DNA of 64,000 bases. It comes from a bacterium (GTDB lineage: Bacteria > SAR324 > NAC60-12). The notes beneath the pieces are model-generated. The model was not told where the DNA came from and searched no databases. It saw only the letters and a list, made by a program, of their open reading frames with translations. This document shows positions 18,036 through 42,001 of this stretch, piece by piece. The DNA lies in contig CBDBHR010000029.1 in assembly GCA_965205865.1 (NCBI GenBank), positions 704,001 through 768,000 on the forward strand, written 5' to 3'. The translations under genes were made by a program, and so were the position numbers. The stretch's first letter is position 1, and every line of letters starts with the position of its first letter.

Positions 18036-19083
18036 GGGGTCAGGCTTGAAAGTTTGAAACTTCAAGCAAGTATTTGACGTTTCAGTTCCTCTAATTGATT
18101 TTGGAGACCCTCGGATTCCTTCAATCGTTGTCTCAACCGGTGCACTCCAAAGCTAATCGTAGAATCGTCTCGATTGCAAACTTTTCCGACCTTCCGAATC
18201 GTTGCGGACTTCCAATCGAAAGCTAACATGCCAATCATCGCACGGGCTTCACTCAACTTTCGTGACTGCACGGCACTTCTTAATTCCTTCTCCTGCAGTT
18301 GATAAACTTGAGCCACTTGATGAATGATCCGTTCTAAAAGAGGAGGAGAGCAGGGGATGTTTTCGAGCTTCTTCAAAACCGAGGTCACAAAATGATCTTC
18401 TCCAATGATCTCTGAATGGGCAGAGCCTTTTTGAAAATTGACCGGCGAAGCAATGTTTCTCCCACTCCGGATATAATCCTCATAAAGTTTTCTGGCCTCT
18501 CCCCGTTTTGGGGAAAAGTGAGACAATCCCCAATCCGTATGCAACCATTCCAGCCGCCGCTTTCCCAAGTAAGCCAAATGGCTGCACCATGGGAAATCAA
18601 CCAACTCTTTGGCCACACCCGCTCGAATCGGATTGAGATGAATATAACGAATCAAGGCTAACAAATAGTTTTCTTGATCAACTATCAAGGCTTTATAACG
18701 TCCCTGAAATAAGTGGCCCATGCGTTTTTGCCGTTGATTGATCCAACGCGTGTAGCGAAATGAGATATTTTGCATGATCGGAGCAAGAGGGATCGCTCCC
18801 ACTTCAATGGCTAAATGGACATGATTGCTCATTAAACAAAAAGCGTGAATCCGATGATCAAAGCGTTGGTAACCTTCTTGGAGTAAGTGATAAAATTGTC
18901 GATAGTCGGGGGAACTGAAAAAAATGGGTTGCCCTCCATTGCCACGAAGCATCACATGATAAAGCGCACCAGGATAGTAAAGGCGTAGCTTACGGGCCAT
19001 CTTTAGAAACAAGCGAGAAGGAAAGTAAAATCGATTTAAAGAAAAAAATAACACTACTTTTCCAAACTTTCAAGCCTGACCCC
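18036..19083 (-). mobile_element. HUH/RAYT-type element copy 1 (1048 bp, 21-bp terminal inverted repeats)
   Basis: GGGGTCAGGCTTGAAAGTTTG ... CAAACTTTCAAGCCTGACCCC; five near-identical copies in the window. Confidence 0.92.
18062..19000 (-). CDS. Y1 HUH transposase (RAYT/TnpA-REP-like) with C-terminal DnaA-C-like HTH
   Basis: MARKLRL..YHVMLRGN, HUH motif NHVHL, GHLFQGRY, YIHLNP; C-terminal EARAMI..NRDDSTI. Confidence 0.92.
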   Translation of the reverse strand: MARKLRLYYPGALYHVMLRGNGGQPIFFSSPDYRQFYHLLQEGYQRFDHRIHAFCLMSNHVHLAIEVGAIPLAPIMQNISFRYTRWINQRQKRMGHLFQGRYKALIVDQENYLLALIRYIHLNPIRAGVAKELVDFPWCSHLAYLGKRRLEWLHTDWGLSHFSPKRGEARKLYEDYIRSGRNIASPVNFQKGSAHSEIIGEDHFVTSVLKKLENIPCSPPLLERIIHQVAQVYQLQEKELRSAVQSRKLSEARAMIGMLAFDWKSATIRKVGKVCNRDDSTISFGVHRLRQRLKESEGLQNQLEELKRQILA

Positions 19084-19515
19084 CTTTATAACTGTTATTG
19101 TAATCCTTTCTGAGATCACTGGGGGAGAATGTGGTAAATGCAGATAATCTCCCAGAACAAGCTGTAGGGTATGCTGACCCAGTTCGAGATCAATCTCTAC
19201 TTCTGTCTGTCCCAACCCGAAATGTACAATCTGATTAGTGGCTGGAAGAGATTGATCAAATGATGGCATATCACCTTCAGCCACATCGATGAGAACATGG
19301 TGATGCCCTGTATTGGGAAACTGTATGCCAGCTGGAGCAATTCCCAGCCCCTTCAGTCCAAATCGTATGGTCACTGGTGAGGTGACAACTGCCCCATCCT
19401 CAGGCGACTGGATATAGACCCTTGCATCATCTGGGGCTGGTGACCTCTCCAGTGCTTCGGCAAGTGCAATGGGAACAAAAAGAAGAAGAATCGTGATCCA
19501 TAGTATCGTTCTCAT
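19054..19515 (-). CDS. DUF4399-like exported protein; C-terminus runs into the element terminus
   Basis: Signal peptide, TGHHHVLID, HFGLGQTE, HTLQLVLGD; last residues GVRLESLEK are encoded by the inverted repeat. Confidence 0.85.
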   Translation of the reverse strand: MRTILWITILLLFVPIALAEALERSPAPDDARVYIQSPEDGAVVTSPVTIRFGLKGLGIAPAGIQFPNTGHHHVLIDVAEGDMPSFDQSLPATNQIVHFGLGQTEVEIDLELGQHTLQLVLGDYLHLPHSPPVISERITITVIKGVRLESLEK

Positions 19516-19745
19516 GGTGGTCCTTTCATATTGAATTGAATAACTCAAATATCTCATCACTCATTTTTACCTGGTTTAGATCAGGATTTAGAAAAGGTAA
19601 GCAAACCCCGAGAAAGAAGCAACGCGAAAGTTCGACCGGAGGCAAGAAGGGGGCCCAGGGTGTCATATCCTCAGGCCCCTTTTTTATTAGAGCGACTCAC
19701 AATGGCTATCGAATCATTCCGTTATGATCTTCACGAATGATTGCG

Positions 19746-20231: not shown

Positions 20232-20548
20232 AATTTCCTCATTTCAATCAGGATTGATAAACAGGACGTCGACCTTCGACATCCACTGAGGCAAGTATAA
20301 GCAATCCAATGTTTTTTGAGGGTCAACGGAGTGTAAAACTTTTGTAAATTAATTCGATCTGCATCCATCATCAATTTTTGACGGAAGCAATTGCGGAGGG
20401 ATCCGGCAACGTTGGGGTAGCCATCCTAGTCAAACTGTTTGAAATTATCTGAAAGCACCAGGCATGGATTCTCTCCACGGCCTGCCGATTCAATTAGAAA
20501 AAGGATTTTCCAAGTATTAAATGGGGTCAGGCTTGAAATTTTGAAACT

Positions 20549-21487
20549 TCAAGCAAGTATTTGACGTTTCAGTTCCTCTAATTGATTTTGGAGACCCTCG
20601 GATTCCTTCAATCGTTGTCTCAACCGGTGCACTCCAAAGCTAATCGTAGAATCGTCTCGATTGCAAACTTTTCCGACCTTCCGAATCGTTGCGGACTTCC
20701 AATCGAAAGCTAACATGCCAATCATCGCACGGGCTTCACTCAACTTTCGTGACTGCCCGGCACTTCTTAATTCCTTCTCCTGCAGTTGATTAACTTGAGC
20801 CACTTGATGAATGATCCGTTCTAAAAGAGGAGGAGAGCAGGGGATGTTTTCGAGCTTCTTCAAAACCGAGGTCACAAAATGATCTTCTCCAATGATCTCT
20901 GAATGGGCAGAGCCTTTTTGAAAATTGACCGGCGAAGCAATGTTTCTCCCACTCCGGATATAATCCTCATAAAGTTTTCTGGCCTCTCCCCGTTTTGGGG
21001 AAAAGTGAGACAATCCCCAATCCGTATGCAACCATTCCAGCCGCCGCTTTCCCAAGTAAGCCAAATGGCTGCACCATGGGAAATCAACCAACTCTTTGGC
21101 CACGCCCGCTCGAATCGGATTGAGATGAATATAACGAATCAAGGCTAACAAATAGTTTTCTTGATCAACTAACAAGGCTTTATAACGTCCCTGAAATAAG
21201 TGGCCCATGCGTTTTTGCCGTTGATTGATCCAACGCGTGTAGCGAAATGAGATATTTTGCATGATCGGAGCAAGAGGGATCGCTCCCACTTCAATGGCTA
21301 AATGGACATGATTGCTCATTAAACAAAAAGCGTGAATCCGATGATCAAAGCGTTGGTAACCTTCTTGGAGTAAGTGATAAAATTGTCGATAGTCGGGGGA
21401 ACTGAAAAAAATGGGTTGCCCTCCATTGCCACGAAGCATCACATGATAAAGCGCACCAGGATAGTAAAGGCGTGGTTTACGGGCCAT
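20549..21487 (-). CDS. Y1 HUH transposase (RAYT-like), copy 2
   Basis: Near-identical to copy 1. Confidence 0.92.
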   Translation of the reverse strand: MARKPRLYYPGALYHVMLRGNGGQPIFFSSPDYRQFYHLLQEGYQRFDHRIHAFCLMSNHVHLAIEVGAIPLAPIMQNISFRYTRWINQRQKRMGHLFQGRYKALLVDQENYLLALIRYIHLNPIRAGVAKELVDFPWCSHLAYLGKRRLEWLHTDWGLSHFSPKRGEARKLYEDYIRSGRNIASPVNFQKGSAHSEIIGEDHFVTSVLKKLENIPCSPPLLERIIHQVAQVNQLQEKELRSAGQSRKLSEARAMIGMLAFDWKSATIRKVGKVCNRDDSTISFGVHRLRQRLKESEGLQNQLEELKRQILA

Positions 21488-21559
21488 CTTTAGAAACAAG
21501 CGAGAAGGAAAGTAAAATCGATTTAAAGAAAAAAATAACACTACTTTTCCAAACTTTCA

Positions 21560-22248
21560 GTCACCGTAAAGAACTGACTTATAGTGGTTTCCAGCCACCT
21601 TTCGTCATTCCTCCGGTACAGATCCGGACGTGCGCTGCTAACGCATCCGGCTCCTGCTTCGAGTCAGACGCTCAAACGTTGCCGTTTGGCGCACCCTGCT
21701 TAAACCGCTCTCTGATTTTACGGCCTCTGAGTTCCGAACACAGGAGGGCAAGCAGAATTCCTCTCAGCCAAGTCCCTTTGCTCCACAGGCTCCGTTGATT
21801 TCCTTTGCATTGTTACTCTCTGCAAATGATCTCATTGTTCGCCGCTTCATCGCTACTACGAACTTGTCCGACTTCCTGAAGACGTAGATATCGGGGTTAT
21901 TTATTAATTTTCCCGATCCGACTACCAATAGAATGTTGACAGTCGTCTTCAGGATCTCCCAGGTTCCGATCAAGAAACTTCCACACATGCACCGGGTCTT
22001 TGACTCCGCCAGGCTGCCGAGACTCACGCTAACGCCTTCGGTTGATATTGCCTTCCCCACCAGACCACAAGGTCAGCGCCTGAAACTATGATTTCGGAGC
22101 TCAATACCGAGCCTATGTTCTCCCCTGTCAACGCTTAGCGCCTATCCTTGCGAATAACCACTCATGACTCGGGGACTCGGCGGGTCGTTACTGCCTTACC
22201 GAGTAAGAGACTTTCACTCTCTATTTCTTGCCAGCTTTCCTGGCGCAC
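21560..22248 (-). mobile_element. Group II intron copy B (class E-like), ORF-less, 689 nt
   Basis: GTGCG...GTGAC termini; same deletion junction (CAAACGTTG|CCGTTTGGCGC) as copy A. Confidence 0.92.
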
Positions 22249-22426
22249 AGCCTGACCCCCTTTTTTCCGCTCCAGCGGCTCAGATTCAGCATACTCACAC
22301 GGCCCCGACAACACATCATCACGGTAGTGATCATAGAAAGCTGCTTGATCAATGAACTTGAGATTATTGGCTGAAGACAACATAAATAGGGGAGCAGTTC
22401 GAACATAAAAATCGTTGATTCAAAGG

Positions 22427-22852
22427 ATGGCAAACATGCAAAAAACCACTAAAAACAAGAAAACGCTTTCAAAGCAACTTAGAGAAGAGGTGACTCAACT
22501 CATTAAAAAATTTAATCATGAAGAAATTAATTCATCACAATGCTATTATGTCCCTCGTTACCGGGGACCATTTGTATACTTAGATCGATTTGCTTACGGG
22601 CAACAAGAACCCGTAGCTCGCATCAAATATACTGGAAATTGGGACGATTGGGAATTTGCGATATTTAAATGGAGCAGCGAAACGTATGATACTGAGGAGT
22701 TCTTCTTTCCAGGGGCTGAATGCCTGGATGGATCTATCAAAGGGGCTTTGAAAGCAGGAATGCGGGCTTATCCTATCACGGACAAGAGCAATCCAGAAGG
22801 TCTCTTTGCTGAACTGGGACAGTTTCTCAATAGCTTATTACCCAAACGATAG
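22427..22852 (+). CDS. Hypothetical protein
   Basis: Protein-like ORF (ARIKYTG..WEFAIFKWSSETY); function not recognised; start uncertain. Confidence 0.7.
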   Translation: MANMQKTTKNKKTLSKQLREEVTQLIKKFNHEEINSSQCYYVPRYRGPFVYLDRFAYGQQEPVARIKYTGNWDDWEFAIFKWSSETYDTEEFFFPGAECLDGSIKGALKAGMRAYPITDKSNPEGLFAELGQFLNSLLPKR

Positions 22853-24022: not shown

Positions 24023-24188
24023 CAAAGAGTGTCGGGTCGTAGCCGGACCAGATTTGCAACCACAAATCTGTACGTATATTCGTCCCACAGCGCACCTATT
24101 TTAATCATCTCCACCGGTCGGCTTCATCAATGTAGAGCCTATGGGATAGAGCGTTCTCTTGGGTTCGGGCCTCCACTCTCCAGGAGCT

Positions 24189-25062
24189 GTCGGGTCGGAG
24201 GAGGCGCGTTTCCGCTAGCCTCCGTCCGCCGCCCAAACCGGACATGCAGTTTTCCCGCATCCGGCTTTCACAGAGAAGTCCGTTTGCCGAAGGGACCAAT
24301 CGAAGGAATTAGTGAGATCAGATTTACTAATTTTCATCTTGTAAATCTTGTCCACTAAGGAGTGAACCTTCTTTGCTCCCGTTAGATTGATCCAGTCAGC
24401 CAGTCTCCTCGGGCCATGAGTTCTGGGTCTTTCACTTACCGAACTTTCCACCTCACTGTCCTTACTCATCTGACTTCCTTTCTCATTCCAACCTTCTCTG
24501 CCCATCGCCTTCCCCAGCTCACTCTGCTGCCGATCCCTCGGTCACGTAGCTCTCACTACGCTTCAGGTACTATTCGATGGTCCGACTACTCAACACGCTT
24601 CGGTTCCCATTTCGCTTTCGCTTATAGGGTCCCTTATCCTAGTGCCACCTAAGAACGCCCTGAGTCCTCCTGGGGTCACTCATGATTCTTCCTCACCGTG
24701 TCGTCCGCACACACCTTGGTATTGCAGGGGGGAATCCAACTGCTTTCGCCATCATAGTGCAAGCTCAACCATTCCCTGCTGTTGGCCGACCGGTTCGTCT
24801 CTGGAGTAGCCTCCTTGACTACGACCCGGTGATTCTCCGCAAACCCTTCAGATTCCACCTCACGGTGGACACCCTGTCCTCCGGAAGTTCACTTCGGTGC
24901 ATTTGGCCCTTTCGACCTCCCATTGTGCTTAAAGCGCCCGGGATGGCGCCCTGGTAAACATTCCGGCCAGCGAGGCATTACCCCCGCTTTTGGATATCAG
25001 CCTGGGATCTCAGGCTGAGTGGGACTTGAACCCACCTGAATCATGCGCTGCACAGTGCGCAC
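24189..25062 (-). mobile_element. Second group II intron type (class F-like), RT gene deleted, nested in intron C
   Basis: 5' GTGCG at 25062; DV GAAAGCCGGATGCGGGAAAACTGCATGTCCGGTTT; ends CCTCCGACCCGAC; IEP N-terminal stub KVHSLVDKIY. Confidence 0.8.
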
Positions 25063-25456
25063 TACGAACTTGTCCGAATTCCTGAAGACGTAGATATCGG
25101 GGTTATTTATTAATTTTCCCGATCCGACTACCAATGGAATGCTGACAGTCGTCTTCAGGATCTCCCAGGTTCCGGTCAAGAAACTTCCACACATGCACCG
25201 GATCTTCGACTCCGCCAGGCTCGACCGGGACTCACGCTAACGCCTTCGGTTGATGTTGCCTTCCCCACCAGACTACAAGGTCAGCACCTGAAACTATGAT
25301 TTCGGAGCTCAATACCGAGCCTATGTTCTCCCCTGTCAACGCTTAGCGCCTATCCTTACGGATAACCACCCATGACTCGGGGCCTCGGCGGGTCGTTACT
25401 GCCTTACCGAGTAAGAGACTTTCACTCTCTATTTCTTGCCAGCTTTCCTGGCGCAC
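25063..25456 (-). mobile_element. Group II intron copy C (class E-like), 5' portion only
   Basis: Matches the 5' ~394 nt of copies A/B/D; 5' exon GGGGTCAGGCT at 25457-25467. Confidence 0.88.
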
Positions 25457-25850
25457 AGCCTGACCCCCTTTTTGCAATAATCATCTAAAAAATCCGATTC
25501 TTGAAAAGAATCGCTCAATTTAGGTTATAATATCTCAAATTTCTATTTTATTATGGAACATCTACGATCTCCAGAGCATCTGGAAAACAAGAATTCAATT
25601 CCTCATGAAGTTTTTTACGAGCAACTTTTATGCAATCAAGAGATTCTAAAATGTCTTCAGGTTCTAATAAAACATCTGACGAACCTTGAGTCGAATGTCG
25701 GGCGTCTAAATTTTCCGGTTGATAATGAATTCAAAAGAAATACGGACTACATTGCTCTCAGGTTCCTTTGAAATGCTGTAAAATTTCAAAATAGTTTTTG
25801 TTTTCATTTCTTATTCGCTAGTGTCTATTTTATTTTTTGGCTTAGCTTCA

Positions 25851-26738
25851 GAACCTGTTTGAAAGTCATTTAATTCTCTTTAACATCAAGCAAATCATAG
25901 CGACATAGATCATGTTTTCAGAGTTTTTTGTTTTTCTTTCATAATCGATGTTGAGTCTTCGATACCATCCAAACCAGGAAAAGGTTCTTTCGACGATCCA
26001 CCTTTTCGGTAGGACCTGAAAGCCCGTTCCTTGGAGGTTTAGAGTGATCTCAAGTTCACATTGAAATCGATTCCATAACCATTGGGCTAATTCCCCTCGA
26101 TAACCTCCGTCGGCCCAAATCATCTGAATCGAAAAGAACCAGCTAAACATCGATTCCAAAAGATCGTAAGCACTTTTGGAATCGGAGGCATTGGCATCAG
26201 TGACTTTAACCATGAGAGGAATTCCCGAGATATCGACAGCTACATGCCTTTTATGCCCTTTGATTCGTTTATTTCCATCAAAACCTCGACTATCAGCCAG
26301 TTCCGTGGTTTTGACGGATTGACTATCAATCATTGCAGCACTGGGTTCGGGAGCTCTGCCCATTTCTATTCGGGTTTGCCGATGGAGAAACTGGTGAATC
26401 AGGAACCAAGTGTAGTTCTTGCGCCATTTATTGTAGTGGTAATAAACACTTTGCCAAGGAGGAAAATCTTTGGGAAGCATTCTCCATTGACAACCCGTGG
26501 TCACTACATACAAAATGGCGTTTATGATAACTCGTAGTTCCCATTTACGAAGGTGGGCTCCACGAGTTGAAAGTTCGGGAAGGTACTCTTGAAGTCTTTC
26601 CCATTGTTTATCACTGACATCACTGTTATAACCTGAACGTTCCATGTTCACTCCTTGTTATTAAGGTTTCATTTTTCTCAAAATGAATGTGACATGGAAC
26701 ACTTCCAATAGGAAGCTCAACTTATTTCAAACAGGTTC
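25851..26738 (-). mobile_element. IS5-family element (IS1031-like)
   Basis: TIR GAACCTGTTTGAAA, 3-bp TCA duplication; interrupts the 3' end of ORF 26717-27208. Confidence 0.88.
25866..26651 (-). CDS. IS5-family DDE transposase
   Basis: TGCQWRMLPKDFPPWQSVY, IDSQSVKT, WADGGY, RWIVERTFSW. Confidence 0.95.
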   Translation of the reverse strand: MNMERSGYNSDVSDKQWERLQEYLPELSTRGAHLRKWELRVIINAILYVVTTGCQWRMLPKDFPPWQSVYYHYNKWRKNYTWFLIHQFLHRQTRIEMGRAPEPSAAMIDSQSVKTTELADSRGFDGNKRIKGHKRHVAVDISGIPLMVKVTDANASDSKSAYDLLESMFSWFFSIQMIWADGGYRGELAQWLWNRFQCELEITLNLQGTGFQVLPKRWIVERTFSWFGWYRRLNIDYERKTKNSENMIYVAMICLMLKRIK

Positions 26739-27208: not shown

Positions 27209-27446
27209 TTAATTTCCCTTTCAATTTGATTCCTATTTTTTCGGTATCATACCGGCAATTTTATCCAAATTCTTGTTTATTTCTTGCAATTCCCGATATT
27301 TGGCAATCTCAATTGCCATTGGGAACGCGGTTATGATAATTAACATAATCTGTATATTTAGTTCTCAAATGCACAGAAATTTCGTGAACCATTTTTACTG
27401 CGAATTCATTATCTTTATTTAGGGTCAGGCTTGAAAGTTTGAAACT

Positions 27447-28385
27447 TCAAGCAAGTATTTGACGTTTCAGTTCCTCTAATTGATTTTGGAGACCCTCGGA
27501 TTCCTTCAATCGTTGTCTCAACCGGTGCACTCCAAAGCTAATCGTAGAATCGTCTCGATTGCAAACTTTTCCGACCTCCCGAATCGTTGCGGACTTCCAA
27601 TCGAAAGCTAACATGCCAATCATCGCACGGGCTTCACTCAACTTTCGTGACTGCACGGCACTTCTTAATTCCTTCTCCTCCAGTTGATAAACTTGAGCCA
27701 CTTGATGAATGATCCGTTCTAAAAGAGGAGGAGAACAAGGGATGTTTTCGAGCTTCTTCAAAACCGAGGTCACAAAATGATCTTCTCCAATGATCTCTGA
27801 ATGGGCAGAGCCTTTTTGAAAATTGACCGGCGAAGCAATGTTTCTCCCACTCCGGATATAATCCTCATAAAGTTTTCTGGCCTCTCCCCGTTTTGGGGAA
27901 AAGTGAGACAATCCCCAATCCGTATGCAACCATTCCAGCCGCCGCTTTCCCAAGTAAGCCAAATGGCTGCACCATGGGAAATCAACCAACTCTTTGGCCA
28001 CACCCGCTCGAATCGGATTGAGATGAATATAACGAATCAAGGCTAACAAATAGTTTTCTTGATCAACTAACAAGGCTTTATAACGTCCCTGAAATAAGTG
28101 GCCCATGCGTTTTTGCCGTTGATTGATCCAACGCGTGTAGCGAAATGAGATATTTTGCATGATCGGAGCAAGAGGGATCGCTCCCACTTCAATGGCTAAA
28201 TGGACATGATTGCTCATTAAACAAAAAGCGTTAATCCGATGATCAAAGCGTTGGTAACCTTCTTGGAGTAAGTGATAAAATTGTCGATAGTCGGGGGAAC
28301 TGAAAAAAATGGGTTGCCCTCCATTGCCACGAAGCATCACATGATAAAGCGCACCAGGATAGTAAAGGCGTGGTTTACGGGCCAT
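27447..28385 (-). CDS. Y1 HUH transposase (RAYT-like), copy 3
   Basis: Near-identical to copy 1. Confidence 0.92.
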   Translation of the reverse strand: MARKPRLYYPGALYHVMLRGNGGQPIFFSSPDYRQFYHLLQEGYQRFDHRINAFCLMSNHVHLAIEVGAIPLAPIMQNISFRYTRWINQRQKRMGHLFQGRYKALLVDQENYLLALIRYIHLNPIRAGVAKELVDFPWCSHLAYLGKRRLEWLHTDWGLSHFSPKRGEARKLYEDYIRSGRNIASPVNFQKGSAHSEIIGEDHFVTSVLKKLENIPCSPPLLERIIHQVAQVYQLEEKELRSAVQSRKLSEARAMIGMLAFDWKSATIREVGKVCNRDDSTISFGVHRLRQRLKESEGLQNQLEELKRQILA

Positions 28386-28457
28386 CTTTAGAAACAAGCG
28401 AGAAGGAAAGTAAAATCGATTTAAAGAAAAAAATAACACTACTTTTCCAAACTTTCA

Positions 28458-30414: not shown

Positions 30415-30527
30415 AGCCTGACCCCCTTTATTTTCTTGCCGAAGGATAGAATTTGTAGGATGCTATAGTGGCAGTATTGAAATAAAAGAAGAAAAAGCGG
30501 CTGTTGGTCTTTGCTGGAGGGAAGATG

Positions 30528-31332: not shown

Positions 31333-32579
31333 CCTAAATCCTGCAATTAGATGACAATCAAACATGGAAATGGTAATATACTCAAATAGTTAACAGCAGA
31401 ATCAACATTTTAAGAGATCACCATTTCCATGAAAAACAAAGGTAGCGCAAGATCGGCAAGAACGACAGCAAAAAACATCCATATCAGCCAGGGAGGCAGA
31501 GACCTGACCGCGCAAGCAGGCTTGATTCCGGTTGTCAAATTTTTTCACAAAGAAGGGATTGTTTCAAAGACAGAGCAGACCGTAGATCATCGGCGTGGCG
31601 CCACGGGTCTTTATGACGCGGTGGACATGGTCATTTTGTCGGTGGTCGGCATTGTTGGTGGCGCCCGTTCGATTCGTTCGATTGTGACAGTTTGGAACGA
31701 CCGTGTTTTGAGTCGTGTGGCCGGTTGGCTGAGGATTCCGGATGAAACCACATTCGGCCGGATACTGCGTACTTTCACACAGAAAAACATCAATGAGATG
31801 GAGAGCTTGAACCATCGGATTCGAGCCGGTATCTGGCGTAAGGCGCTTCGAAGTGGGACAAGCATCGTTGGGGTGTTACACTGTCTTGTGATTGACGTGG
31901 ACTCCACTGTGAAAACGGCCTACGGCAAGCAGCAAGGAGTGTCTGTCGGATATAATCCCCACAAACGCGGTGCAGCTTCGTATCATCCTCTGCTGGCATT
32001 TTGCGCAGAGACAAAGGAGATTCTTCAGGGTTGGCTTCGTGATGGGAGTGCCTATACCAGCAATGGAGTCGTTGAATTCATGCGGCAACTTCTCGCTCAC
32101 CTTCCAAATCGGACTCGCACTCTGTTTCGTGGAGACAGTGGTTTTTTTGTGGGGGATTTGCTGGATTTCCTCGAAGAACGAGGCCATGGCTATCTGATCA
32201 AGGTCAAACTCAAGGGGCTTGTCTCGTTGTTGGAAACCCAAAAATGGCAAAAAGTGAAGGGGCAGCCCGCTTGGGAAGGGTGTGAGTTTTCCCACCAATG
32301 TGAAACTTGGAGGAGGTCAAGAAAATTCATGGCCGTACGCAGGGAGAAAGAGGAGGAACTCAAAGGGATGGCCACCCTCTTTGAGATGAAGGAGTACGAT
32401 TATTTTTGTTATGTTCTCACTGACGCGCTCACTCCCTGGCAGGCTCACAAAGAGTATGGCCAAAGGGCGGTCGCTGAGACATGGATTGAGGAAGCAAAAA
32501 ATCAAACTGCGCTGGCTCAGATTAAAACCGACGATTTTTGGGCCAACAGTGCCTTGTTCCAATGCGCGATACTCGCTTA
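31333..32579 (+). mobile_element. IS1380-family element, 3'-truncated by RAYT element copy 4 (transposase 31429-32598)
   Basis: LTAQAGL, IDVDST, YHPLLAF, RGDSGF; identity with the 11256 copy stops at CTCGCTTA. Confidence 0.9.
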
Positions 32580-32584
32580 TAAAT

Positions 32585-33632
32585 GGGGTCAGGCTTGAAA
32601 GTTTGAAACTTCAAGCAAGTATTTGACGTTTCAGTTCCTCTAATTGATTTTGGAGACCCTCGGATTCCTTCAATCGTTGTCTCAACCGGTGCACTCCAAA
32701 GCTAATCGTAGAATCGTCTCGATTGCAAACTTTTCCGACCTCCCGAATCGTTGCGGACTTCCAATCGAAAGCTAACATGCCAATCATCGCACGGGCTTCA
32801 CTCAACTTTCGTGACTGCACGGCACTTCTTAATTCCTTCTCCTGCAGTTGATAAACTTGAGCCACTTGATGAATGATCCGTTCTAAAAGAGGAGGAGAGC
32901 AGGGGATGTTTTCGAGCTTCTTCAAAACCGAGGTCACAAAATGATCTTCTCCAATGATCTCTGAATGGGCAGAGCCTTTTTGAAAATTGACCGGCGAAGC
33001 AATGTTTCTCCCACTCCGGATATAATCCTCATAAAGTTTTCTGGCCTCTCCCCGTTTTGGAGAAAAGTGAGACAATCCCCAATCCGTATGCAACCATTCC
33101 AGCCGCCGCTTTCCCAAGTAAGCCAAATGGCTGCACCATGGGAAATCAACCAACTCTTTGGCCACACCCGCTCGAATCGGATTGAGATGAATATAACGAA
33201 TCAAGGCTAACAAATAGTTTTCTTGATCAACTAACAAGGCTTTATAACGTCCCTGAAATAAGTGGCCCATGCGTTTTTGCCGTTGATTGATCCAACGCGT
33301 GTAGCGAAATGAGATATTTTGCATGATCGGAGCAAGAGGGATCGCTCCCACTTCAATGGCTAAATGGACATGATTGCTCATTAAACAAAAAGCGTGAATC
33401 CGATGATCAAAGCGTTGGTAACCTTCTTGGAGTAAGTGATAAAATTGTCGATAGTCGGGGGAACTGAAAAAAATGGGTTGCCCTCCATTGCCACGAAGCA
33501 TCACATGATAAAGCGCACCAGGATAGTAAAGGCGTGGCTTACGGGCCATCTTTAGAAACAAGCGAGAAGGAAAGTAAAATCGATTTAAAGAAAAAAATAA
33601 CACTACTTTTCCAAACTTTCAAGCCTGACCCC
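32585..33632 (-). mobile_element. HUH/RAYT-type element copy 4 (1048 bp)
   Basis: Both inverted repeats intact. Confidence 0.92.
32611..33549 (-). CDS. Y1 HUH transposase (RAYT-like), copy 4
   Basis: Near-identical to copy 1. Confidence 0.92.
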   Translation of the reverse strand: MARKPRLYYPGALYHVMLRGNGGQPIFFSSPDYRQFYHLLQEGYQRFDHRIHAFCLMSNHVHLAIEVGAIPLAPIMQNISFRYTRWINQRQKRMGHLFQGRYKALLVDQENYLLALIRYIHLNPIRAGVAKELVDFPWCSHLAYLGKRRLEWLHTDWGLSHFSPKRGEARKLYEDYIRSGRNIASPVNFQKGSAHSEIIGEDHFVTSVLKKLENIPCSPPLLERIIHQVAQVYQLQEKELRSAVQSRKLSEARAMIGMLAFDWKSATIREVGKVCNRDDSTISFGVHRLRQRLKESEGLQNQLEELKRQILA

Positions 33633-33958: not shown

Positions 33959-34227
33959 GTCTTAAGGGAAATGGAACTAGTCGCTAGAAGGGTAGGGGAA
34001 TTTCCTCCGTCTCTGAATCTAAATTAAACGTATGATTTGCCGTAAGGTCTTGAAAGTCAGGCCATTGGCTCCCGAAGTCGTAAAGGTCAGGGCAGGAGCA
34101 TACAACTGTGAGCACGCTCCCATCAACGTGTCGCTTGAGACGGGTAAGCGCCGTGTAAAGCAACGCGCGATCCCGTGCTCTTTCGATGCTCTCAACATAT
34201 AAGACCACGTGCCTTGCTTCCCAACCA

Positions 34228-35041
34228 ATTACGCCACCCACAAACATCTTAAGGTGAAAGAATGGCTCAAAAAACACCCGCGATTTGCATTTCATTCCTA
34301 CTTCCTCCTCATGGCTGAACATGGTGGAACGCTTTTTTGGCAAGCTGGCAGGACACGCATTTATGGAGCGGATAAAATCGAGGAGATTGTGAAGAAAACC
34401 ATTGAAGAGAAGCCTGAGGACCGTACCCATTGGAGCACGCGATCGATGGCCAAGGCAGTTGGCGTAGGCAAGACAACCGTCGGTAAAGTATGGAAAGCCC
34501 ATCGAGCCTCATCTGGAAAAAACATTTAAGTTGTCGCATGATAAGCATTTCACTGCGAAACTGAAAGATGTCATCGGTTTGTACATGAATCCTCCTGAGA
34601 AAGCGCTGGTCTTGAGCGTCGATGAGAAATCACAAATCCAGGCACTCGATCGCACCCAGCCAGGTCTGCCACTGAAACCAGGGCGCAATGGCACCAGAAC
34701 TCATGATTATATCCGTCTGGCACCTGCTGTCTGTTTACTGCTACGCAGACAGGGAAAGTGCTCGCTCGCTGTGAAAAACGGCACCGACACCAAGAGTATC
34801 TGCGCTTCCTGCGTCTTATTGACAAGACTACCTCGAAGCAACTGCAGGTACACTTGATCCCTGCCACCCACAAACATCTTAAGGTGAAAGAATGGCTCAA
34901 AAAACACCCGCGATTTCACCCGCATTTCATTCCTACTTCCTCCTCATGGCTGAACATGGTGGAACGCTTTTTTGGCAAGATCACTGCAGAACGGATTCGA
35001 CGAGGCGCCTTCAAAAGCGTGCTCGAGTTGACCGAAGCCAT
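34228..35041 (+). mobile_element. IS630-family transposase remnant, frameshifted and partly duplicated
   Basis: [35 protein letters not shown]; 34231-34344 duplicates 34862-34979. Confidence 0.85.
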
Positions 35042-35435
35042 CCTGTGGAGAGTGGTTGCTTTCACTCTAGCGTCACCCTGGAAGAAGGCTAGCTTTTGGC
35101 GCCGCTGCTCCTCGCCTTGATGGTCGAATGTATTGAGAACGCGGACAGATTTTCTCTTATAGTCCTCCACCAGTTCACGCCCCACCCCACTGCCAGATAG
35201 AAAAGTAATATCTGGTATAGCAGTATCGACGCGCAAACGTACCATTTGCCGGCGTACTTCATCAACACACGCTTCTGTGGCATTTGATGGATGCACTTGC
35301 ACCCAGCGCAACTCCGTTGGGTATAGGTCTAGCTCTGCTTGCTCTATCGGAGGGATGTCAGTTTCTTCATCTGCCAGGTATTGGGCGGCAAATTTTTGTA
35401 CGAATCGAATGATTTTTGGTGGCAAGCGATAGCTA

Positions 35436-37278
35436 GACCCTAGCCGAAAAGGGTTTCGAAAATAGTAAATGTAACCAATTTGATTCTATTTGATTCTCTA
35501 TTTGATTCAATATGACGAGAAAACGATTTTTTTGTTTTTTATTCGCCCACAGCACAGTTTTTATAGGGAAAAAATCTTTTTTGGACATACTTTCCTCGCC
35601 CCTGCTCATATTTCACACTCCCCCATTGAATATTCAGGCCGCTTGTTTGAGTTGTCTTTTTTTCAACTCAATCATTTTGCAAAAATTATAGGTTAATGCT
35701 TTTTCCAGCAACTCTGCCCGAACGTTTTCAATCCCTCTGCGCATAACTTGTCCGAAATGGAAACGATGCTTAAGATGAAACATCAACGACTCTGCAGCAG
35801 ATCTTCCATTTCGTGATTCCAAATAGATTTCACTTTCCCATTCTTCAATCGGGGTCATCTTTTTTCCCTTTGCCCCACTAATACTAAAAACCTTAACGCC
35901 TTTGCCCATCCACTTTTCTCTGATCGCCTGATTGGCATATCCATCATCAAGGCTCACTTCAGAGGGAATGCTGATGGTGCATCGCAAATGTTCAACAAGG
36001 GCAGGGTCGAGTTGCCCTGAATCAGCAGCATTGCCCTCCGGAGTAATTAACACGGAAATAAAACCATTTCCGCTCCTTCCTAATTGAGGCTTATATCCGA
36101 TAAGCGCTTCTCGATCTCCCTTTTGAATATAAGCCGAGCTCTGATCGGAAAGACTCAATACTTTCTCAGTAGAAGGAACCTTCTTTTCTTCAAAAACTCT
36201 TTGATGACAGTAGATGATTACCCGTTGCAAATTAGAAATATCTTCATTCATCATTTCAATGAGGCGAATCAAACGCGTTTTCCGAGAAGGGGGGAGAAGA
36301 GCTTTTTGGGCACGGATATCCACCTTTGCCATTTCTTTTAAAAATTTCCCATGAGCGCTTTGAGCTTTCTTCAATAGGGTTTTGTAATGTTTTTTTCGCT
36401 TCGTTTTACTGTCCTTTTTACCTGTCTCAAAAGCCATCATCTTAGAGAGCTTATTCATCTCCTTGATGAGGAAATCAAAATTTCTTTCACTGATCTCAGC
36501 GATTCCAAATGTATCAAGGGAACGCCCTCGATGGTAGCTTCGCTCCACGAGACGAGTCAATATCGACGAATCAGTAGGCCAAGCTGTATTTCCTTTTACA
36601 GAGGTGCTATCCAGTTTTAAAATATCAAAATCGTCCAACTCTTCATCGAGAACCATTCGAATTTGAGCATCGAAAATAAACTGTCTGCTCTCGTTGCTGA
36701 CAGCATTGACATTATCAAGGATTGTACTCGCTCCCGGCATTTTCAATCCACGGTTGAGCAGAAGCAGATGCAGTGTGATTGACTCTGAAAGAAATATTTG
36801 GGCCGTTTGGGATTTGATACTTCCTAAATATCCCCGAATCATCATAAAAAGGTAGACTAAAAAAGCCGACATCCGAGGACACCCTATTTCCAGCCTCAGT
36901 TCTTCCGGCTTCAATTCCTCATCTTCTACGGGAAGATGAGGAAGCCATGGATTCCGGGCTTCCTGCCATCGTTTATCCTCTAAACGCTCTTTCTTTTTAT
37001 TTCTTGCGTATTTCTCCAAATCCTGTTCAATTTTGTCCAATATCTCCGGCTCTCGCTCAGACAATTGATCAAGTTCTGATAAGAAATTTTCAAATTCTGT
37101 ATCAGGAGCGCTTAAAATAAGATGTTTTTCTGCTCGAATGAATGGTTTCATTTTGGGTGCCATAATTCTTAATATTGAAGTTATTCACAGTTATTTCAAT
37201 GAATTATGGCACTTTTTAACCTCAAGTTTAAAGATATAATTCTAAAAAATACCTTAAAATACCTTTTCGGCTAGGATC
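35436..37278 (-). mobile_element. DDE insertion sequence (IS5/IS1182/ISNCY-like)
   Basis: TIR GA(C/T)CCTAGCCGAAAAGG, flanked by TAGCTA on both sides. Confidence 0.88.
35634..37163 (-). CDS. DDE transposase
   Basis: LDSTSV, SLDDGY, RSAAESLMFHLK; enclosed by TIRs. Confidence 0.85.
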   Translation of the reverse strand: MAPKMKPFIRAEKHLILSAPDTEFENFLSELDQLSEREPEILDKIEQDLEKYARNKKKERLEDKRWQEARNPWLPHLPVEDEELKPEELRLEIGCPRMSAFLVYLFMMIRGYLGSIKSQTAQIFLSESITLHLLLLNRGLKMPGASTILDNVNAVSNESRQFIFDAQIRMVLDEELDDFDILKLDSTSVKGNTAWPTDSSILTRLVERSYHRGRSLDTFGIAEISERNFDFLIKEMNKLSKMMAFETGKKDSKTKRKKHYKTLLKKAQSAHGKFLKEMAKVDIRAQKALLPPSRKTRLIRLIEMMNEDISNLQRVIIYCHQRVFEEKKVPSTEKVLSLSDQSSAYIQKGDREALIGYKPQLGRSGNGFISVLITPEGNAADSGQLDPALVEHLRCTISIPSEVSLDDGYANQAIREKWMGKGVKVFSISGAKGKKMTPIEEWESEIYLESRNGRSAAESLMFHLKHRFHFGQVMRRGIENVRAELLEKALTYNFCKMIELKKRQLKQAA

Positions 37279-38591
37279 TAGCTAGTGCTCAGTTGAGCCC
37301 ACGGACCGCCTTGAAACCCGGCGCCAACCATCGCCTGTTCAGTCCAAGCACCGGCCGTCCCATAGATATTCTGCGTCTTGTCCGCAACAAGGAGCATCTC
37401 CCCGCCGTCCTTCCCTGCTTTGCGGAGAGTCTGCCACCAGTTAAGTCTGAAATCCTGGCCCTCATCTACCAGAATAGCGTCGTAAAAAAGCGGTGTGGTC
37501 CCACTATCCTGACTTTGGCCGTTGTATATCCGCTGCACGAGCTGCGCCATACGGTTCTCCAACACAGCATTTGTCGATAGCTCCCTGTCCTCCGATGAAT
37601 CCCCCCAGAGTTCCTTGTAAGCTTGCTCATGTCCCGTAGCCAAGCAAACTCGCTTACACCAAGAATGAAAGTTGAGAAAAGTAATCCGTCTTCTGACAAC
37701 TCGCTGCCTTCCCACGTGTCTGGCAGCTAGATCGCGTAAGTAGTTCAATAGGGTGATGTTGAATGAGCATACAAGAACCTCTTTGCCTTCAGTGGCAAGC
37801 TCAGCCGAACGTGCTGCGAGAACCAAACTCTTGCCCGATCCAGCAGGCCCCTTGAGGCGCCGGTAACCTGATGATGTTCGAGTCGTTGCAAGCCGACGCT
37901 GTTGATTGTTCATTTCAAGCGGTTCTCGTTGTTCTCGGCTGAAGGCCGGCTCTTTCAGCCAACCCCGAAGGTCATTCGCAGTATCCTCACACATGGATTT
38001 CGATGAAGTGCGCCACCACTCTGGGAACAGATGGGCAATGTTGCCCGACTGGACGTCGTCTGAACCGGATAACGGGTAATATTGCGGATATTTGGCTATT
38101 CCATCGTCTCTATCCCGAAACGGAGCAAATAGCTTCTGCACTTGTGCTCGGGGAGACCGAGTGAAAATGATGCCTGCGGTAATCACTGCCAGTCCAGAAT
38201 TGTCCTTCAGCCTGGGACAGTACAAGCCAAACAGCTCATCCTTATAGAGCCGTATCTTGTTAACCGGATTATCACACTGTCGGCTGAATGAGTTGCCAGA
38301 CTTTTGACGTGCCATCAGCCGCGGTTCTCCAGTCCCGCTGTAGTCCACGTAGTAGTCGAGAGCAGTCAGATCCCAATCTTTGACCTCAAACACAGCGATG
38401 CCAGCATTAGGGTTGAGGAGGACAAAATCGGGCCGTAGACCATTCAGGTGCGGTTGGATGTACATCTCCCACTCATTGGGCAACTTATCGTCGAACAACT
38501 CGGCAACCGTACACTCTCCGGTAGTGAGCGTTGTCAGTAATCTATCCCACTGTTCTCTTGGCGGGTCAATGAGTCGAGACATACCGTTCTA

Positions 38592-40460
38592 TCAGGGTGT
38601 TATGAGGGTGTCTCCAGAGCCTGAGACCCGGCTGTCTTCCTGCACCAGTTCGTACTTCTTAGGGGCCTCATCGGGATCCTCGATATCGTCCGAGGCGATC
38701 TGTTTGCCCATCACTGTCTGAATCCTGTCGAGGAGCACCAACTGCCGACTGTTGAAGTACTCAACGAAATCGTCTGACCGGAGGTGAGCAGGATCGATAA
38801 AGTGCGACTTAAGGTAGCCGTCCAGAACGTCTCGAGGAACACTATACTTGCCCGACTCGATACGCACGAGATACTCACTAGGAGAATCTCCTCCGATGAT
38901 GCGGTTGGTTCGCGCCGTAAGCGGTGTTTTGTTTATGATCGAGTCGCAGCATCCGGGCTTAATGCCATGATCGTGGCACCACTTCTGTGGAAAGACATGA
39001 TGAATGTCAATGCTCTCGTCAAAGTAGCTCTGTATGGACGACTTTTCGCCAGTCAACCAATCTTTTGCGCCTTCGCGCAGTAGAAGCGCATATACGCCCT
39101 TGTATGCGGCACTGTTTCGCGTGCGCAGTGTCCGCAACCGGGCGGGAGTGAATTCCGCATCATAGATGGTACCCGGATCCGGCCCGCCACCCCGTATCCA
39201 GCTCAGGACTTCAGGGAGGTCGTGGGAAAACCGCGTCTCGATTGAGCCTCCGTAGAGCTCTCCCAGCACGCCGCACCAGTACCATCGTGCGAGCTTTTCT
39301 TTCGCAGGGAACGACTCCCAATCCTGATCAAGAACCGTGAGGATCGCTGCCAGTGGTATCAGTTGACTGCCGTACGGTAGGAATCTCGCGTCATACAAGT
39401 GCTGAGAATGGAGGAATCTCGCCGCTCTCTCAAAGCCCTGCATCAACGGGTCAGCCCACCACTGGTACTCGTCCAGTCCTAGCCGCAGCATATCCGAGCG
39501 CTTGCATCCTATGCCGGGAGCCCGGTCCTCGTCCGTTCCATTGTGAAGGGCGACATTTCGGCGCTCCAGGGTAGCAAGTAAAGTCACAGCCTGAAGAAAA
39601 TCCGTATTGGAGACACCCGAGAGGATCGACCGGCAGTGGATTTTACACTCCCGCCTCTCCCAATCCGGCCTTAGTTGAAAGTTGTCCGCAGCGAAAGTCG
39701 CTGTCAGAAGCTCAAACACTGTCAGCGTCACGCCACCGGTATTTACTTTCTCGAAGACTTGGCAGACCGCCTCCTTTGGCGTGTCCTTGTCAAGCTCAAT
39801 GACCGGCACCTGGTATTGCTCGAATCGCTTGACGATTTTGCCATTGAAATCAATCCAAAATTTGATCTTTTCCTTATCGAAGTCCCAGAATTCTTGGAAA
39901 CCCACCATCCAGTCGTCCGTATCGAACACCTTGGAAAAGGGAAACATCATTGCCTCGTACTCTCGCTCTGGGGTCGAGTAGTCTTTAACTACATCCCGTC
40001 CGAACCTCTTGATCTGCCACTCCTCAGGCAGGGAAATTACCGCTTCTTCCCGATCACCATTAGCGTTCAGCGCCATCTGCATGTCTATGTAGTACCACCG
40101 TTTGATCTTTCTCCCACGTTGGTCACGGGTGCGTACCGGTCGGTCAAGACGCAGGGACTGGAAGAGCGATGTGAGTCGCTGTTGCCCGTCGAGGATGAGC
40201 CGTTCTGCCTTCTGCTCTCCCGGCGCTGGCGCACCCTCTAAGGGGCGTTGCTTGAAGCGAATGGTCTCACCTCCCGCTCTGAGCATCATCACAGCGCCGA
40301 TCGGGTAGCTCAGGGAAATACTCGCGAGCAAGCTTCGGACGTGATCGTCATCCCAGACCCACCCCCGCTGGAATTCAGGCAATTGCGTCCTCCCGTCCGC
40401 TGCCTCGCCGAGCATCCCGTCAAGTGATTCCTTCTCAATGCCAAATGTCTTTATGTTCAT
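38592..40460 (-). CDS. DUF262 domain protein with C-terminal His-Me finger (GmrSD-like)
   Basis: LPEFQRGWVW, ILDGQQRLT, FEKVNTGG, DIHHVFP..N..N. Confidence 0.9.
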   Translation of the reverse strand: MNIKTFGIEKESLDGMLGEAADGRTQLPEFQRGWVWDDDHVRSLLASISLSYPIGAVMMLRAGGETIRFKQRPLEGAPAPGEQKAERLILDGQQRLTSLFQSLRLDRPVRTRDQRGRKIKRWYYIDMQMALNANGDREEAVISLPEEWQIKRFGRDVVKDYSTPEREYEAMMFPFSKVFDTDDWMVGFQEFWDFDKEKIKFWIDFNGKIVKRFEQYQVPVIELDKDTPKEAVCQVFEKVNTGGVTLTVFELLTATFAADNFQLRPDWERRECKIHCRSILSGVSNTDFLQAVTLLATLERRNVALHNGTDEDRAPGIGCKRSDMLRLGLDEYQWWADPLMQGFERAARFLHSQHLYDARFLPYGSQLIPLAAILTVLDQDWESFPAKEKLARWYWCGVLGELYGGSIETRFSHDLPEVLSWIRGGGPDPGTIYDAEFTPARLRTLRTRNSAAYKGVYALLLREGAKDWLTGEKSSIQSYFDESIDIHHVFPQKWCHDHGIKPGCCDSIINKTPLTARTNRIIGGDSPSEYLVRIESGKYSVPRDVLDGYLKSHFIDPAHLRSDDFVEYFNSRQLVLLDRIQTVMGKQIASDDIEDPDEAPKKYELVQEDSRVSGSGDTLITP

Positions 40461-40953
40461 TACACCTCCTCAACGATTCCGACTATTGTTACCTAGTGAT
40501 TTTCTGAGGCCCTCTATGAAGAGGAACCGGGAAGCATATCCCGCAAAAGGCTGAAATGGCTCTCGGCCATATAGGGACAGGAATGCCCTCATTACATTGA
40601 CGTCTATGGGGAACGCGTCCAAGCACCTCAAGTCGAACAAGGCCACGCAATGTTGTAGTAGTTACTATGTAAACCAGACAGTCTCCGAGGGTTGTGATAA
40701 AAATGAAGTTTTACATATTACAAACAACCTCTTTTAGAGGAGACTGTCATGAAAAAGGATAACATTGAATCATTATCAGGTCAACCCCTTTTTGTTGGCA
40801 TTGGCGTGCATAAGAAGATTTTTCACGTAACCTTTCGGAGCTTTGATTGCGAGATGACCACTCCTTCAATTGCTTCTCAAATATTTGAACACGCCATAGC
40901 CCCCTTTGCCGCTTGATTCGTCTCTGACGTACTGAATGGGGATTATCTGAAAT

Positions 40954-42001
40954 GGGGTCAGGCTTGAAAGTTTGAAACTTCAAGCAAGTATTTGACGTTT
41001 CAGTTCCTCTAATTGATTTTGGAGACCCTCGGATTCCTTCAATCGTTGTCTCAACCGGTGCACTCCAAAGCTAATCGTAGAATCGTCTCGATTGCAAACT
41101 TTTCCGACTTCCCGAATCGTTGCGGACTTCCAATCGAAAGCTAACATGCCAATCATCGCACGGGCTTCACTCAACTTTCGTGACTGCCCGGCACTTCTTA
41201 ATTCCTTCTCCTGCAGTTGATAAACTTGAGCCACTTGATGAATGATCCGTTCTAAAAGAGGAGGAGAGCAGGGGATGTTTTCGAGCTTCTTCAAAACCGA
41301 GGTCACAAAATGATCTTCTCCAATGATCTCTGAATGGGCAGAGCCTTTTTGAAAATTGACCGGCGAAGCAATGTTTCTCCCACTCCGGATATAATCCTCA
41401 TAAAGTTTTCTGGCCTCTCCCCGTTTTGGGGAAAAGTGAGACAATCCCCAATCCGTATGCAACCATTCCAGCCGCCGCTTTCCCAAGTAAGCCAAATGGC
41501 TGCACCATGGGAAATCAACCAACTCTTTGGCCACACCCGCTCGAATCGGATTGAGATGAATATAACGAATCAAGGCTAACAAATAGTTTTCTTGATCAAC
41601 TAACAAGGCTTTATAACGTCCCTGAAATAAGTGGCCCATGCGTTTTTGCCGTTGATTGATCCAACGCGTGTAGCGAAATGAGATATTTTGCATGATCGGA
41701 GCAAGAGGGATCGCTCCCACTTCAATGGCTAAATGGACATGATTGCTCATTAAACAAAAAGCGTTAATCCGATGATCAAAGCGTTGGTAACCTTCTTGGA
41801 GTAAGTGATAAAATTGTCGATAGTCGGGGGAACTGAAAAAAATGGGTTGCCCTCCATTGCCACGAAGCATCACATGATAAAGCGCACCAGGATAGTAAAG
41901 GCGTAGCTTACGGGCCATCTTTAGAAACAAGCGAGAAGGAAAGTAAAATCGATTTAAAGAAAAAAATAACACTACTTTTCCAAACTTTCAAGCCTGACCC
42001 C
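40954..42001 (-). mobile_element. HUH/RAYT-type element copy 5 (1048 bp)
   Basis: Both inverted repeats intact. Confidence 0.92.
40980..41918 (-). CDS. Y1 HUH transposase (RAYT-like), copy 5
   Basis: Near-identical to copy 1. Confidence 0.92.
   Translation of the reverse strand: MARKLRLYYPGALYHVMLRGNGGQPIFFSSPDYRQFYHLLQEGYQRFDHRINAFCLMSNHVHLAIEVGAIPLAPIMQNISFRYTRWINQRQKRMGHLFQGRYKALLVDQENYLLALIRYIHLNPIRAGVAKELVDFPWCSHLAYLGKRRLEWLHTDWGLSHFSPKRGEARKLYEDYIRSGRNIASPVNFQKGSAHSEIIGEDHFVTSVLKKLENIPCSPPLLERIIHQVAQVYQLQEKELRSAGQSRKLSEARAMIGMLAFDWKSATIREVGKVCNRDDSTISFGVHRLRQRLKESEGLQNQLEELKRQILA

Follow-up and report, generated by a model that had tools for sequence, protein, structure and literature searches.

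A 64,000-nt stretch of contig CBDBHR010000029.1 (positions 704,001-768,000), referred to here as the window, carries five direct, recently multiplied copies, c1 to c5, of a small and little-studied transposase-bearing element; coordinates are those of the window unless a contig is given. Each unit is a TIRtron, that is, a gene for a single-tyrosine HUH (histidine-hydrophobic residue-histidine) enzyme of the REP-associated tyrosine transposase (RAYT) clade, called TIRYT, placed between terminal inverted repeats (REP, repetitive extragenic palindrome). The class assignment is based on motifs, domains and fold. We consider it likely that these units of ~1.05 kb are TIRtrons behaving like insertion sequences (ISs), whose ends pair on single-stranded DNA and which hop locally on the same strand without target duplication. 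Five intact copies with different flanks lie within 24 kb, and a sister family in this genome has one internal-deletion derivative in ten copies; these observations support IS-like mobility and local hopping. No target duplication accompanies the five copies, and the same type of element is present in a sister species.

A repeat search with a 300-nt reference placed the five copies on one strand at 97-100% identity, with start-to-start spacings of 2487, 6898, 5164 and 8369 bp. In a full alignment they can be aligned over their whole length, with homology starting at GGGGTCAGG in all five (the first base of c3 is A, giving AGGG in place of GGGG). In c1, c4 and c5 the homology ends at CCTGACCCC, 1048 bp from the start. 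Copies c2 and c3 depart from the alignment 11 nt before this end, after a segment closing with CAAACTTTCA, and share a different sequence beyond it; this sequence is a group II intron in each case, and without their introns both copies measure 1048 bp again. An earlier interpretation made from the letters and reading frames, here called the sequence-only reading, had given every unit a length of exactly 1048 bp, which holds for the contiguous units c1, c4 and c5 (three of five) but not for the intron-interrupted c2 and c3. The 21-bp inverted termini that it described, GGGGTCAGGCTTGAAAGTTTG, are perfect in c1, c4 and c5 and complete, although split by the intron, in c2 and c3.

The reading frame is intact in all five copies, and the likely coding sequence (CDS) comprises 312 amino acids from an ATG, which is also the length of most relatives. 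Copies differ pairwise at 4-8 of 939 nt (<1%) and at 2-5 residues. Alignment, open frames and the Pfam domain Y1_Tnp all agree with the sequence-only reading that five intact and near-identical Y1 transposase genes share one orientation within 24 kb. At five of five copies the homology breaks off no more than a few bases from the inverted repeats, and the flanks all differ, the introns being the sole sequence in common. Flank inspection and a motif scan gave no direct target duplication at any of the five copies, in line with the earlier observation. When all genomic copies were mapped in the 4.74-Mb assembly, those of at least 99% identity were these five only, all at C29:722036-746001, and no near-identical copy was found outside the 24-kb interval. 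The next relative is 77% identical and is located on contig C4.

Pfam detects two domains in the transposase, Y1_Tnp (3e-14) and Bac_DnaA_C (8.5e-8), and N59-H60-x-H62, F98-Q99 and Y119-I-H-L-N-P124 are invariant in an alignment of 33 sequences. The NCBIfam model REP_Tyr_transpos (REP-associated tyrosine transposase) scores 70.8 bits, below its cut-off of 80. An AlphaFold model with a mean pLDDT of 83.8 consists of two domains with a disordered linker at residues 184-217. The best fold match of the N-terminal domain is E. coli TnpAREP with a REP hairpin (4ER8, E 6.7e-7, TM 0.75 on target), with the IS608 and ISDra2 transposases ranking behind it. The C-terminal domain superposes on the DnaA domain IV-DNA complexes 3PVP and 1J1V (TM 0.86-0.87, rmsd 1.4-1.5 A). 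Searched by sequence, the PDB gave no match at E <= 0.01. The protein family is large, with 4234 proteins at E <= 0.001 among 5833 candidates, and relatives that are named by their sources are called "transposase" or "REP element-mobilizing transposase RayT". Matches were found in 29 of 72,556 plasmid records, all at <60% identity, which indicates that the element is not plasmid-borne. Many metagenomic relatives sit on contigs of ~1.0-1.3 kb, which is about the length of the element. Such contigs are what an assembler makes of multi-copy repeats, and they hint that multi-copy TIRtrons are common in environmental genomes.

This element type has been in print since 2013 and received its classification in 2017-2018; the novelty proposed in the sequence-only reading is not supported. 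Di Nocera, De Gregorio & Rocco (2013, BMC Genomics 14:522; PMC3733652) gave the name TIRtrons to RAYT-like genes with terminal inverted repeats in place of REPs, and the name TIRYT to their enzymes. According to their account, many TIRtron repeats have the sequence GGGGWSAS (the majority type), the repeats form families (singles, dimers and groups), and several distinct TIRYT genes, each with its own repeats, can co-exist in one genome (PMC3733652). Quentin, Siguier, Chandler & Fichant (2018; PMC6006769) assigned 20 of 26 of those TIRYTs to TnpA-Y1 subclass 2.1, within which group 2.1.2 has a Bac_DnaA_C-like tail. The signature of this subclass in their Table 1 is NHVH, W[EQ] or FQ, and Y[IV]HLNP, without REPs. 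The same paper reports TIRYTs in ~15% of sequenced strains, a mean of 1.9 copies per genome for subclass 2.1 with 49% identity between copies, and membership of this subclass for 291 of the 292 sequences in RAYT group 1 of Bertels (PMC6006769). TIRtron/TIRYT, subclass 2.1 and RAYT group 1 are thus names for one type. Bertels, Gallie & Rainey (2017; PMC5581495) give 6.3% near-identical duplicates and 1.2% plasmid copies for RAYT group 1, and group 1, together with group 6, makes up the pair of most IS-like RAYT groups in their study.

The element in the window agrees with these descriptions in most respects. Its repeats start with GGGGTCAG, which fits GGGGWSAS, and they enclose a Y1 HUH gene with its catalytic tyrosine as terminal inverted repeats, not REP hairpins. 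The NHVH, FQ and YIHLNP motifs and the Bac_DnaA_C-type C-terminal helix-turn-helix (HTH) domain are those of subclass 2.1.2 and RAYT group 1, and, as in that subclass, no REP hairpins stand beside the gene. The element departs from subclass 2.1 solely in copy number and inter-copy identity, with five copies differing at 4-8 nt in 939 compared with 1.9 copies at 49% identity, and low copy number and low identity are typical of the subclass and not strictly defining. Repeat families and the co-residence of several of them are further features in common with the TIRtrons of PMC3733652. What distinguishes the present case from that account is the presence of five near-identical intact copies in 24 kb, a ten-copy miniature of a sister family, and introns that home into the repeat core. 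Multi-copy TIRtrons may already be listed in supplements of the main TIRtron and RAYT papers, for example in Figure 9/Additional file 5 of PMC3733652.

With IS200/IS605 elements (IS608, ISDra2) the units share the single-tyrosine HUH fold, the absence of target duplication and small size. They differ in having Y---NP (class 2) and not Y---Q (class 1), an extra DNA-binding domain, no tnpB, and true terminal inverted repeats where IS200/IS605 elements have two similar subterminal hairpins. No hairpin forms within the gene-upstream end by itself (z +1.6), and at the downstream end the hairpin does not surpass those of shuffled sequences. Membership in IS200/IS605 was rejected given the YIHLNP motif, the terminal inverted repeats and the lack of end hairpins of note. 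In this respect motifs, fold and end folding all bear out the earlier proposal of a RAYT-class Y1 HUH element with terminal inverted repeats and not subterminal hairpins. Systems of RAYTs with REPs or REPINs (REP doublets forming hairpins), such as E. coli TnpAREP and Pseudomonas groups 2 and 3, have in common with the element the fold best matched by 4ER8, and hairpin mini-elements of its sister families resemble REPINs. The units differ in the absence of GTAG-tagged REPs and in a gene that is multi-copy and inside the mobile unit. Assignment to groups 2 and 3 was rejected on the NCBIfam score below cut-off and on flanks without GTAG.

The outer part of the repeats connects the five copies to a larger population of elements. 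The genome contains 145 exact matches to the 10-mer GGGGTCAGGC, compared with ~9 occurrences expected by chance in an arithmetic estimate; this 10-mer is common to at least five repeat families, while the inner part is family-specific. This inner repeat is TTGAAAGTTTGAAA in family A, to which the copies in the window belong, TTGCAAGTTTGCAA in family B, CTTTGATTA followed by AATGAAA or TTTGATT in family C, TTGCATACTTGTAT in family D and TTCGGTATTTCG in family E; in our reading of the outputs it forms a motif at an 8-nt tandem step in each of the five. Family B has one full element, C4:25432-26464 (1033 bp, with a 318-aa frame). All ten family-B miniatures examined are 367-369 bp in length and correspond to positions 1-183 plus 848-1033 of this full element, every one with identical breakpoints. 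Their identity is 86-96% to the full element and 89-99% among themselves, and they are dispersed on four contigs. The amplification of a single deletion derivative to ten sites is the classic signature of a trans-mobilised miniature element, and it indicates that a transposase acts in trans on DNA bounded by such repeats.

Families C, D and E contain elements of 52-91 bp with little beyond the two repeats, and these are REPIN-like. The mini-elements of 100 bp or less whose folding was computed (17 of 17) each gave one long stem. The 3-4 bases flanking the REPIN-like mini-elements usually pair as well; examples in this genome (G000) are G000:C27:50737-50816, C29:81771-81850, C30:921034-921090 and C29:7795-7869. 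About 45 nt from a family-D hairpin mini-element, the sequence G000:C30:920951-920987 (L057:2-38) matches the Rfam model CRISPR-DR9 with 43.1 bits (gathering score 45) and may be the edge of a CRISPR array. Apart from this one CRISPR-repeat-like match, Rfam at E <= 0.01 returned only spurious miRNA-type hairpins for 10 repeat-bearing loci; Acido-Lenti-1 was not matched at any of them.

A metagenome-assembled genome (MAG) of a sister species in the same genus (G001) contains one full family-A copy with 92% nucleotide identity, and dN/dS between c1 and this copy is 0.39. The same MAG has dozens of family-A-type miniature derivatives arranged in clusters, with the same direction within each cluster. 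Among close relatives, represented by one genome per species, the two loci found belong to the sister MAG. Of five loci of relatives inspected, four (those of G001 and G004, and families B and C in this genome) lie between inverted repeats that have a related core. Such repeats stand around a 43%-identical relative from a different genus of the family. A cluster of miniature elements occupies the orthologous place in the two genomes (G000:C29:71-96 kb and G001:C1:1098-1122 kb). There, the left flank of the element at C29:78335 is 93% identical to G001 up to the repeat end, and the occupant is of family-A type in G001 and of family B in G000. The sequence-only reading had proposed a self-mobile element that hops locally, and this is a reasonable reading of an element that looks self-mobile and clusters locally.

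The bases just outside the repeats are also conserved. Next to the 145 exact GGGGTCAGGC ends, position -5 is G or A, positions -4, -3 and -2 are A in 91, 108 and 108 cases, respectively, and any base may stand at -1. At c4 and c5, homology to intact paralogs of the neighbouring multi-copy ISs stops 4-5 nt outside GGGG, and a weak match of c1 to G001 likewise stops 4 nt before GGGG. These end points suggest that the true termini probably include RAAAN, which would make the unit ~1056 bp in length. A remnant of an end containing GGGTCAG was observed within 30 nt outside a complete end at 13 ends, in 8 of the 13 at a distance of 3-4 nt (for example C23:126009, C30:451355 and C16:11498, and 14097-14125 in the window). 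It may be the footprint of a nested insertion or of an excision.

The introns of c2 and c3 lie in the sense of the transposase gene inside its upstream repeat, and a motif scan located the last 11 nt of the split repeats, AGCCTGACCCC, at 22249-22259 (c2) and 30415-30425 (c3). Group II intron models were the sole Rfam matches at the gathering threshold over 15000-46000. Of 41 intron 5' junctions found in the whole genome, 38 adjoin (G)GGGTCAGGC plus a T or C, with at most one mismatch, and on the other side of the intron the inner repeat of family A, B, C, D or E follows as 3' exon. Taken with 3' exons from five families, these 5' junctions indicate that the conserved core of TIRtron ends is the homing site of this intron family. 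Most of its members are copies of ~689 nt without an open reading frame (ORF) and few have a reverse transcriptase (RT), with 5-8 further copies of the RT part compared with 34-40 of the ribozyme part. Insertion splits the end into 11 + 10 nt and probably disables it, immobilising c2 and c3. RmInt1, which homes into ISRm2011-2, is a described example of a group II intron living in an IS. Both cases involve an endonuclease-less group II intron with its natural home inside an insertion sequence; the home here is the conserved outer core of inverted repeats that several TIRtron families have in common. Homing into TIRtron ends is a new instance of a known intron habit. Among the listed literature matches on group II introns and RAYTs, no title or abstract gives an account of introns in RAYT or TIRYT ends. 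Coordinates of the elements, introns and neighbouring features are collected in Table 1.

Table 1. TIRtron copies, introns and neighbouring features in the window.
Feature	Position	Strand	Details
TIRtron copy c1	18036-19083	-	1048 bp, from outer G/C to outer G/C of the 21-bp inverted repeats; CDS 18062-19000
TIRtron copy c2	20523-22259	-	CDS 20549-21487; ORF-less group II intron splits gene-upstream inverted repeat
TIRtron copy c3	27421-30425	-	CDS 27447-28385; full-length group II intron splits gene-upstream inverted repeat
TIRtron copy c4	32585-33632	-	1048 bp; CDS 32611-33549; low-coordinate end abuts truncated DDE_Tnp_1_4 IS
TIRtron copy c5	40954-42001	-	1048 bp; CDS 40980-41918; high-coordinate end 4 nt from truncated IS66-family element
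21-bp terminal inverted repeat (example, gene-downstream end of c1)	18036-18056	+	GGGGTCAGGCTTGAAAGTTTG; partner 19063-19083
ORF-less group II intron in c2 inverted repeat	21560-22248	-	689 nt; RF02005, 155.8 bits at 21994-22214
Group II intron in c3 inverted repeat	28458-30414	-	1957 nt; RT ORF 28562-29989 (RVT_1, 2e-36); RF02005, 164 bits at 30158-30380
Third group II intron copy	24185-25456	-	Rfam match 25200-25422; 5' end abuts solo AGCCTGACCCC remnant 25457-25467
Sister-family mini-element with the same ORF-less intron	13336-14107	.	outside 18036-42001; intron 13400-14096
IS4/5-type DDE gene	25866-26651		
DDE_Tnp_1_4 insertion sequence	31417-32584	+	at least 33 full-length flank matches elsewhere; truncated at c4 junction
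NERD/UvrD-type helicase gene	33984-38582	-	broken by insertions 34227-35042 and 35430-37278
816-bp repeat	34227-35042		inserted in helicase gene
1849-bp DDE element	35430-37278		inserted in helicase gene
GmrSD_N (DUF262) gene	38592-40460	-	unique in genome
IS66-family element	42006-43526	+	5' side truncated next to c5

The DNA surrounding the copies is itself rich in repeats. In the interval 18036-42001, 14,902 of 23,966 bases (62%) recur elsewhere in the genome, and the value is 52% outside the five elements; in the rest of the window 34% is repeated. Pfam identifies DUF4399, one DUF2335, NERD/UvrD, GmrSD_N (DUF262), four DDE/IS66 transposases and a reverse transcriptase in the interval. The segments between the copies had been called unrelated cargo. 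DUF4399, DUF2335, NERD/UvrD and DUF262 are indeed there, but the intervening DNA is mostly other mobile DNA, and the four DDE/IS66 transposases and the reverse transcriptase had gone unlisted. In contigs from further public runs, position 34226 is followed directly by 35043, and 35429 by 37279. Since these contigs skip both insertion sequences, the NERD/UvrD helicase is intact in other strains and broken here, and the defence-like pair of GmrSD and helicase is undergoing degradation in this genome. Synteny with the sister species (at G001:C1:249188) spans an aldo-keto reductase gene and a short-chain dehydrogenase gene and ends at the left junction of c1 (18031/18036). For the part of the window past 44 kb, matches are spread across the G001 chromosome.

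A mechanism can be proposed for the likely mode of movement. The conserved outer GGGGTCAGGC and the A-rich RAAAN just outside it would be the part that is read and cut by the HUH/Tyr domain, while the cognate C-terminal HTH would bind the family-specific inner repeat with its 8-nt tandem motif. At a replication fork, the two ends of the single-stranded element would pair into one stem, offering a duplex to the HTH and single-stranded feet to the nuclease. The element would then leave and re-enter nearby on the same strand without target duplication, giving rise to co-oriented local clusters. Later, recombination between direct copies and other insertions would scramble the flanks, and group II introns homing into the repeat core have split the upstream ends of c2 and c3. 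That the two ends can pair into one stem had been suggested in the sequence-only reading, and it is plausible because the 52-91-bp mini-elements of the sister families fold as single long hairpins.

Several results weigh against this interpretation. The class as a whole is described as low-copy and without evidence of mobility (PMC6006769), and no transposition event was directly seen here. No empty site was found among paralogs when the joined flanks of 44 repeat-bounded elements were searched in the whole genome; the two junction-spanning matches obtained were both overlapping copies of the same locus. G001 gave no empty site either, as the synteny at c1 stops at the left junction with the right flank elsewhere, and for the two miniature-element loci checked in G001 either the orthologous site was occupied or the second flank was missing. 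None of the contigs from four public runs contained an empty site or skipped any of c1-c4; these short-read contigs break at element borders, and coverage is lacking for parts of the c2 region in some runs, from which no inference was drawn. Orientation relative to GC skew gives no guidance on coupling to the lagging-strand template, as the skew is weak and the sense strand coincides with the G-rich strand at 19 loci and with the C-rich one at 13. Inverted repeats and a duplex-binding HTH fit double-strand recognition equally well. Single-nucleotide polymorphisms (SNPs) are shared among the copies in incompatible, mosaic patterns, which show gene conversion or recombination among them and blur their history. 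Finally, the missing halves of the ISs cut at c4 and c5 are absent from the far side of those copies, and these junctions are therefore not simple insertions. Together with the mosaic SNPs, the missing halves suggest deletion or recombination between direct copies after insertion.

The main alternative keeps the same element and changes the chemistry. The HTH would bind both ends as duplex, the HUH domain would nick one strand per end, and movement would be replicative, by a rolling-circle or copy-out route, without a single-stranded stem. A DnaA domain IV-like fold of the kind that binds duplex DNA fits such a scheme, as do the 8-nt tandem motif in the inner repeats of all five families, repeats that are not self-complementary and an upstream end without a hairpin. 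The one-sided truncation of the IS neighbours at c4 and c5 is also the type of damage left by replicative or one-ended events. Yet the short derivatives are almost pure hairpins and no target duplication was found. Known Y1 HUH transposases and E. coli TnpAREP work on single-stranded hairpins, which further argues against duplex chemistry, and we regard it as unlikely.

Another possibility is that there was no transposition at all, and that a domesticated RAYT-like gene was multiplied by segmental duplication or recombination in an unstable, IS-rich region. The confinement of all five copies to a single 24-kb stretch, the recombination evident from mosaic SNP sharing and the usually low copy number of the class would agree with this. 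However, segmental duplication is difficult to reconcile with homology that ends within a few bases of the repeats at all five copies, with no flank shared save the introns, and with a sister-family deletion derivative at ten dispersed sites on four contigs. We consider this explanation very improbable, and mobile TIRtrons acting through paired single-stranded ends remain the preferred one.

The sequence-only reading had gone further and suggested an integron-like or island-building system, with the elements capturing DNA segments or stitching them together as an ordered array. Co-orientation, the alternation with non-homologous segments and the end of sister-species synteny at the c1 junction speak for the idea, but no integrase was found among 27 ORFs scanned in Pfam, nor any att-type site, and the inter-element segments are heterogeneous in size and strand and form no regular cassettes. 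The flanks are introns, DDE/IS66 elements and a broken helicase pair; 52% of the inter-element DNA is repeated mobile DNA, and the sole sizeable unique segment is the GmrSD and helicase pair, whose helicase is being destroyed by insertions. Such assembly is hardly credible. An assembly artefact, in which a single repeat was placed five times, is equally hard to believe: 1-kb repeats are difficult for short-read assemblers and the public-run contigs break at element borders, but the SNP pattern differs from copy to copy (4-8 nt pairwise), the flanks are unique, two copies contain different introns, and at the borders of c1 and c2 contigs from independent runs reach from the unique flank 17-26 nt inside the element, the latter being weak evidence below a 31-nt bridging rule.

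A broader picture is possible, and we hold it tentatively, with more doubt than confidence. This genome and its sister species may harbor an active three-tier system, consisting of autonomous TIRtrons that hop locally as single-stranded DNA through pairing of their two ends, miniatures ranging from 367 bp down to REPIN-like hairpins of 52-91 bp, and group II introns that home into the GGGGTCAGGC core. If this is true, it would be the first natural case where one could demonstrate that a class 2 (RAYT-clade) Y1 transposase is mobile, and a living link from IS200-type elements to RAYT/REPIN systems that have been domesticated.

For annotation, these findings mean that repeats starting with GGGGTCAGGC in this lineage are transposon ends, and that the 24-kb array is an IS sink and not an organised capture of genes. 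The locus serves well as a natural example of a TIRtron that is apparently active. Intact near-identical copies, a ten-copy miniature from a single deletion, hairpin mini-elements, and several co-resident families whose repeats have a shared outer part and an inner part of their own are all found together here. This makes the locus and its genome a convenient natural system in which to test if, and by what route, RAYT-clade enzymes transpose and how they give rise to REPIN-like repeats.

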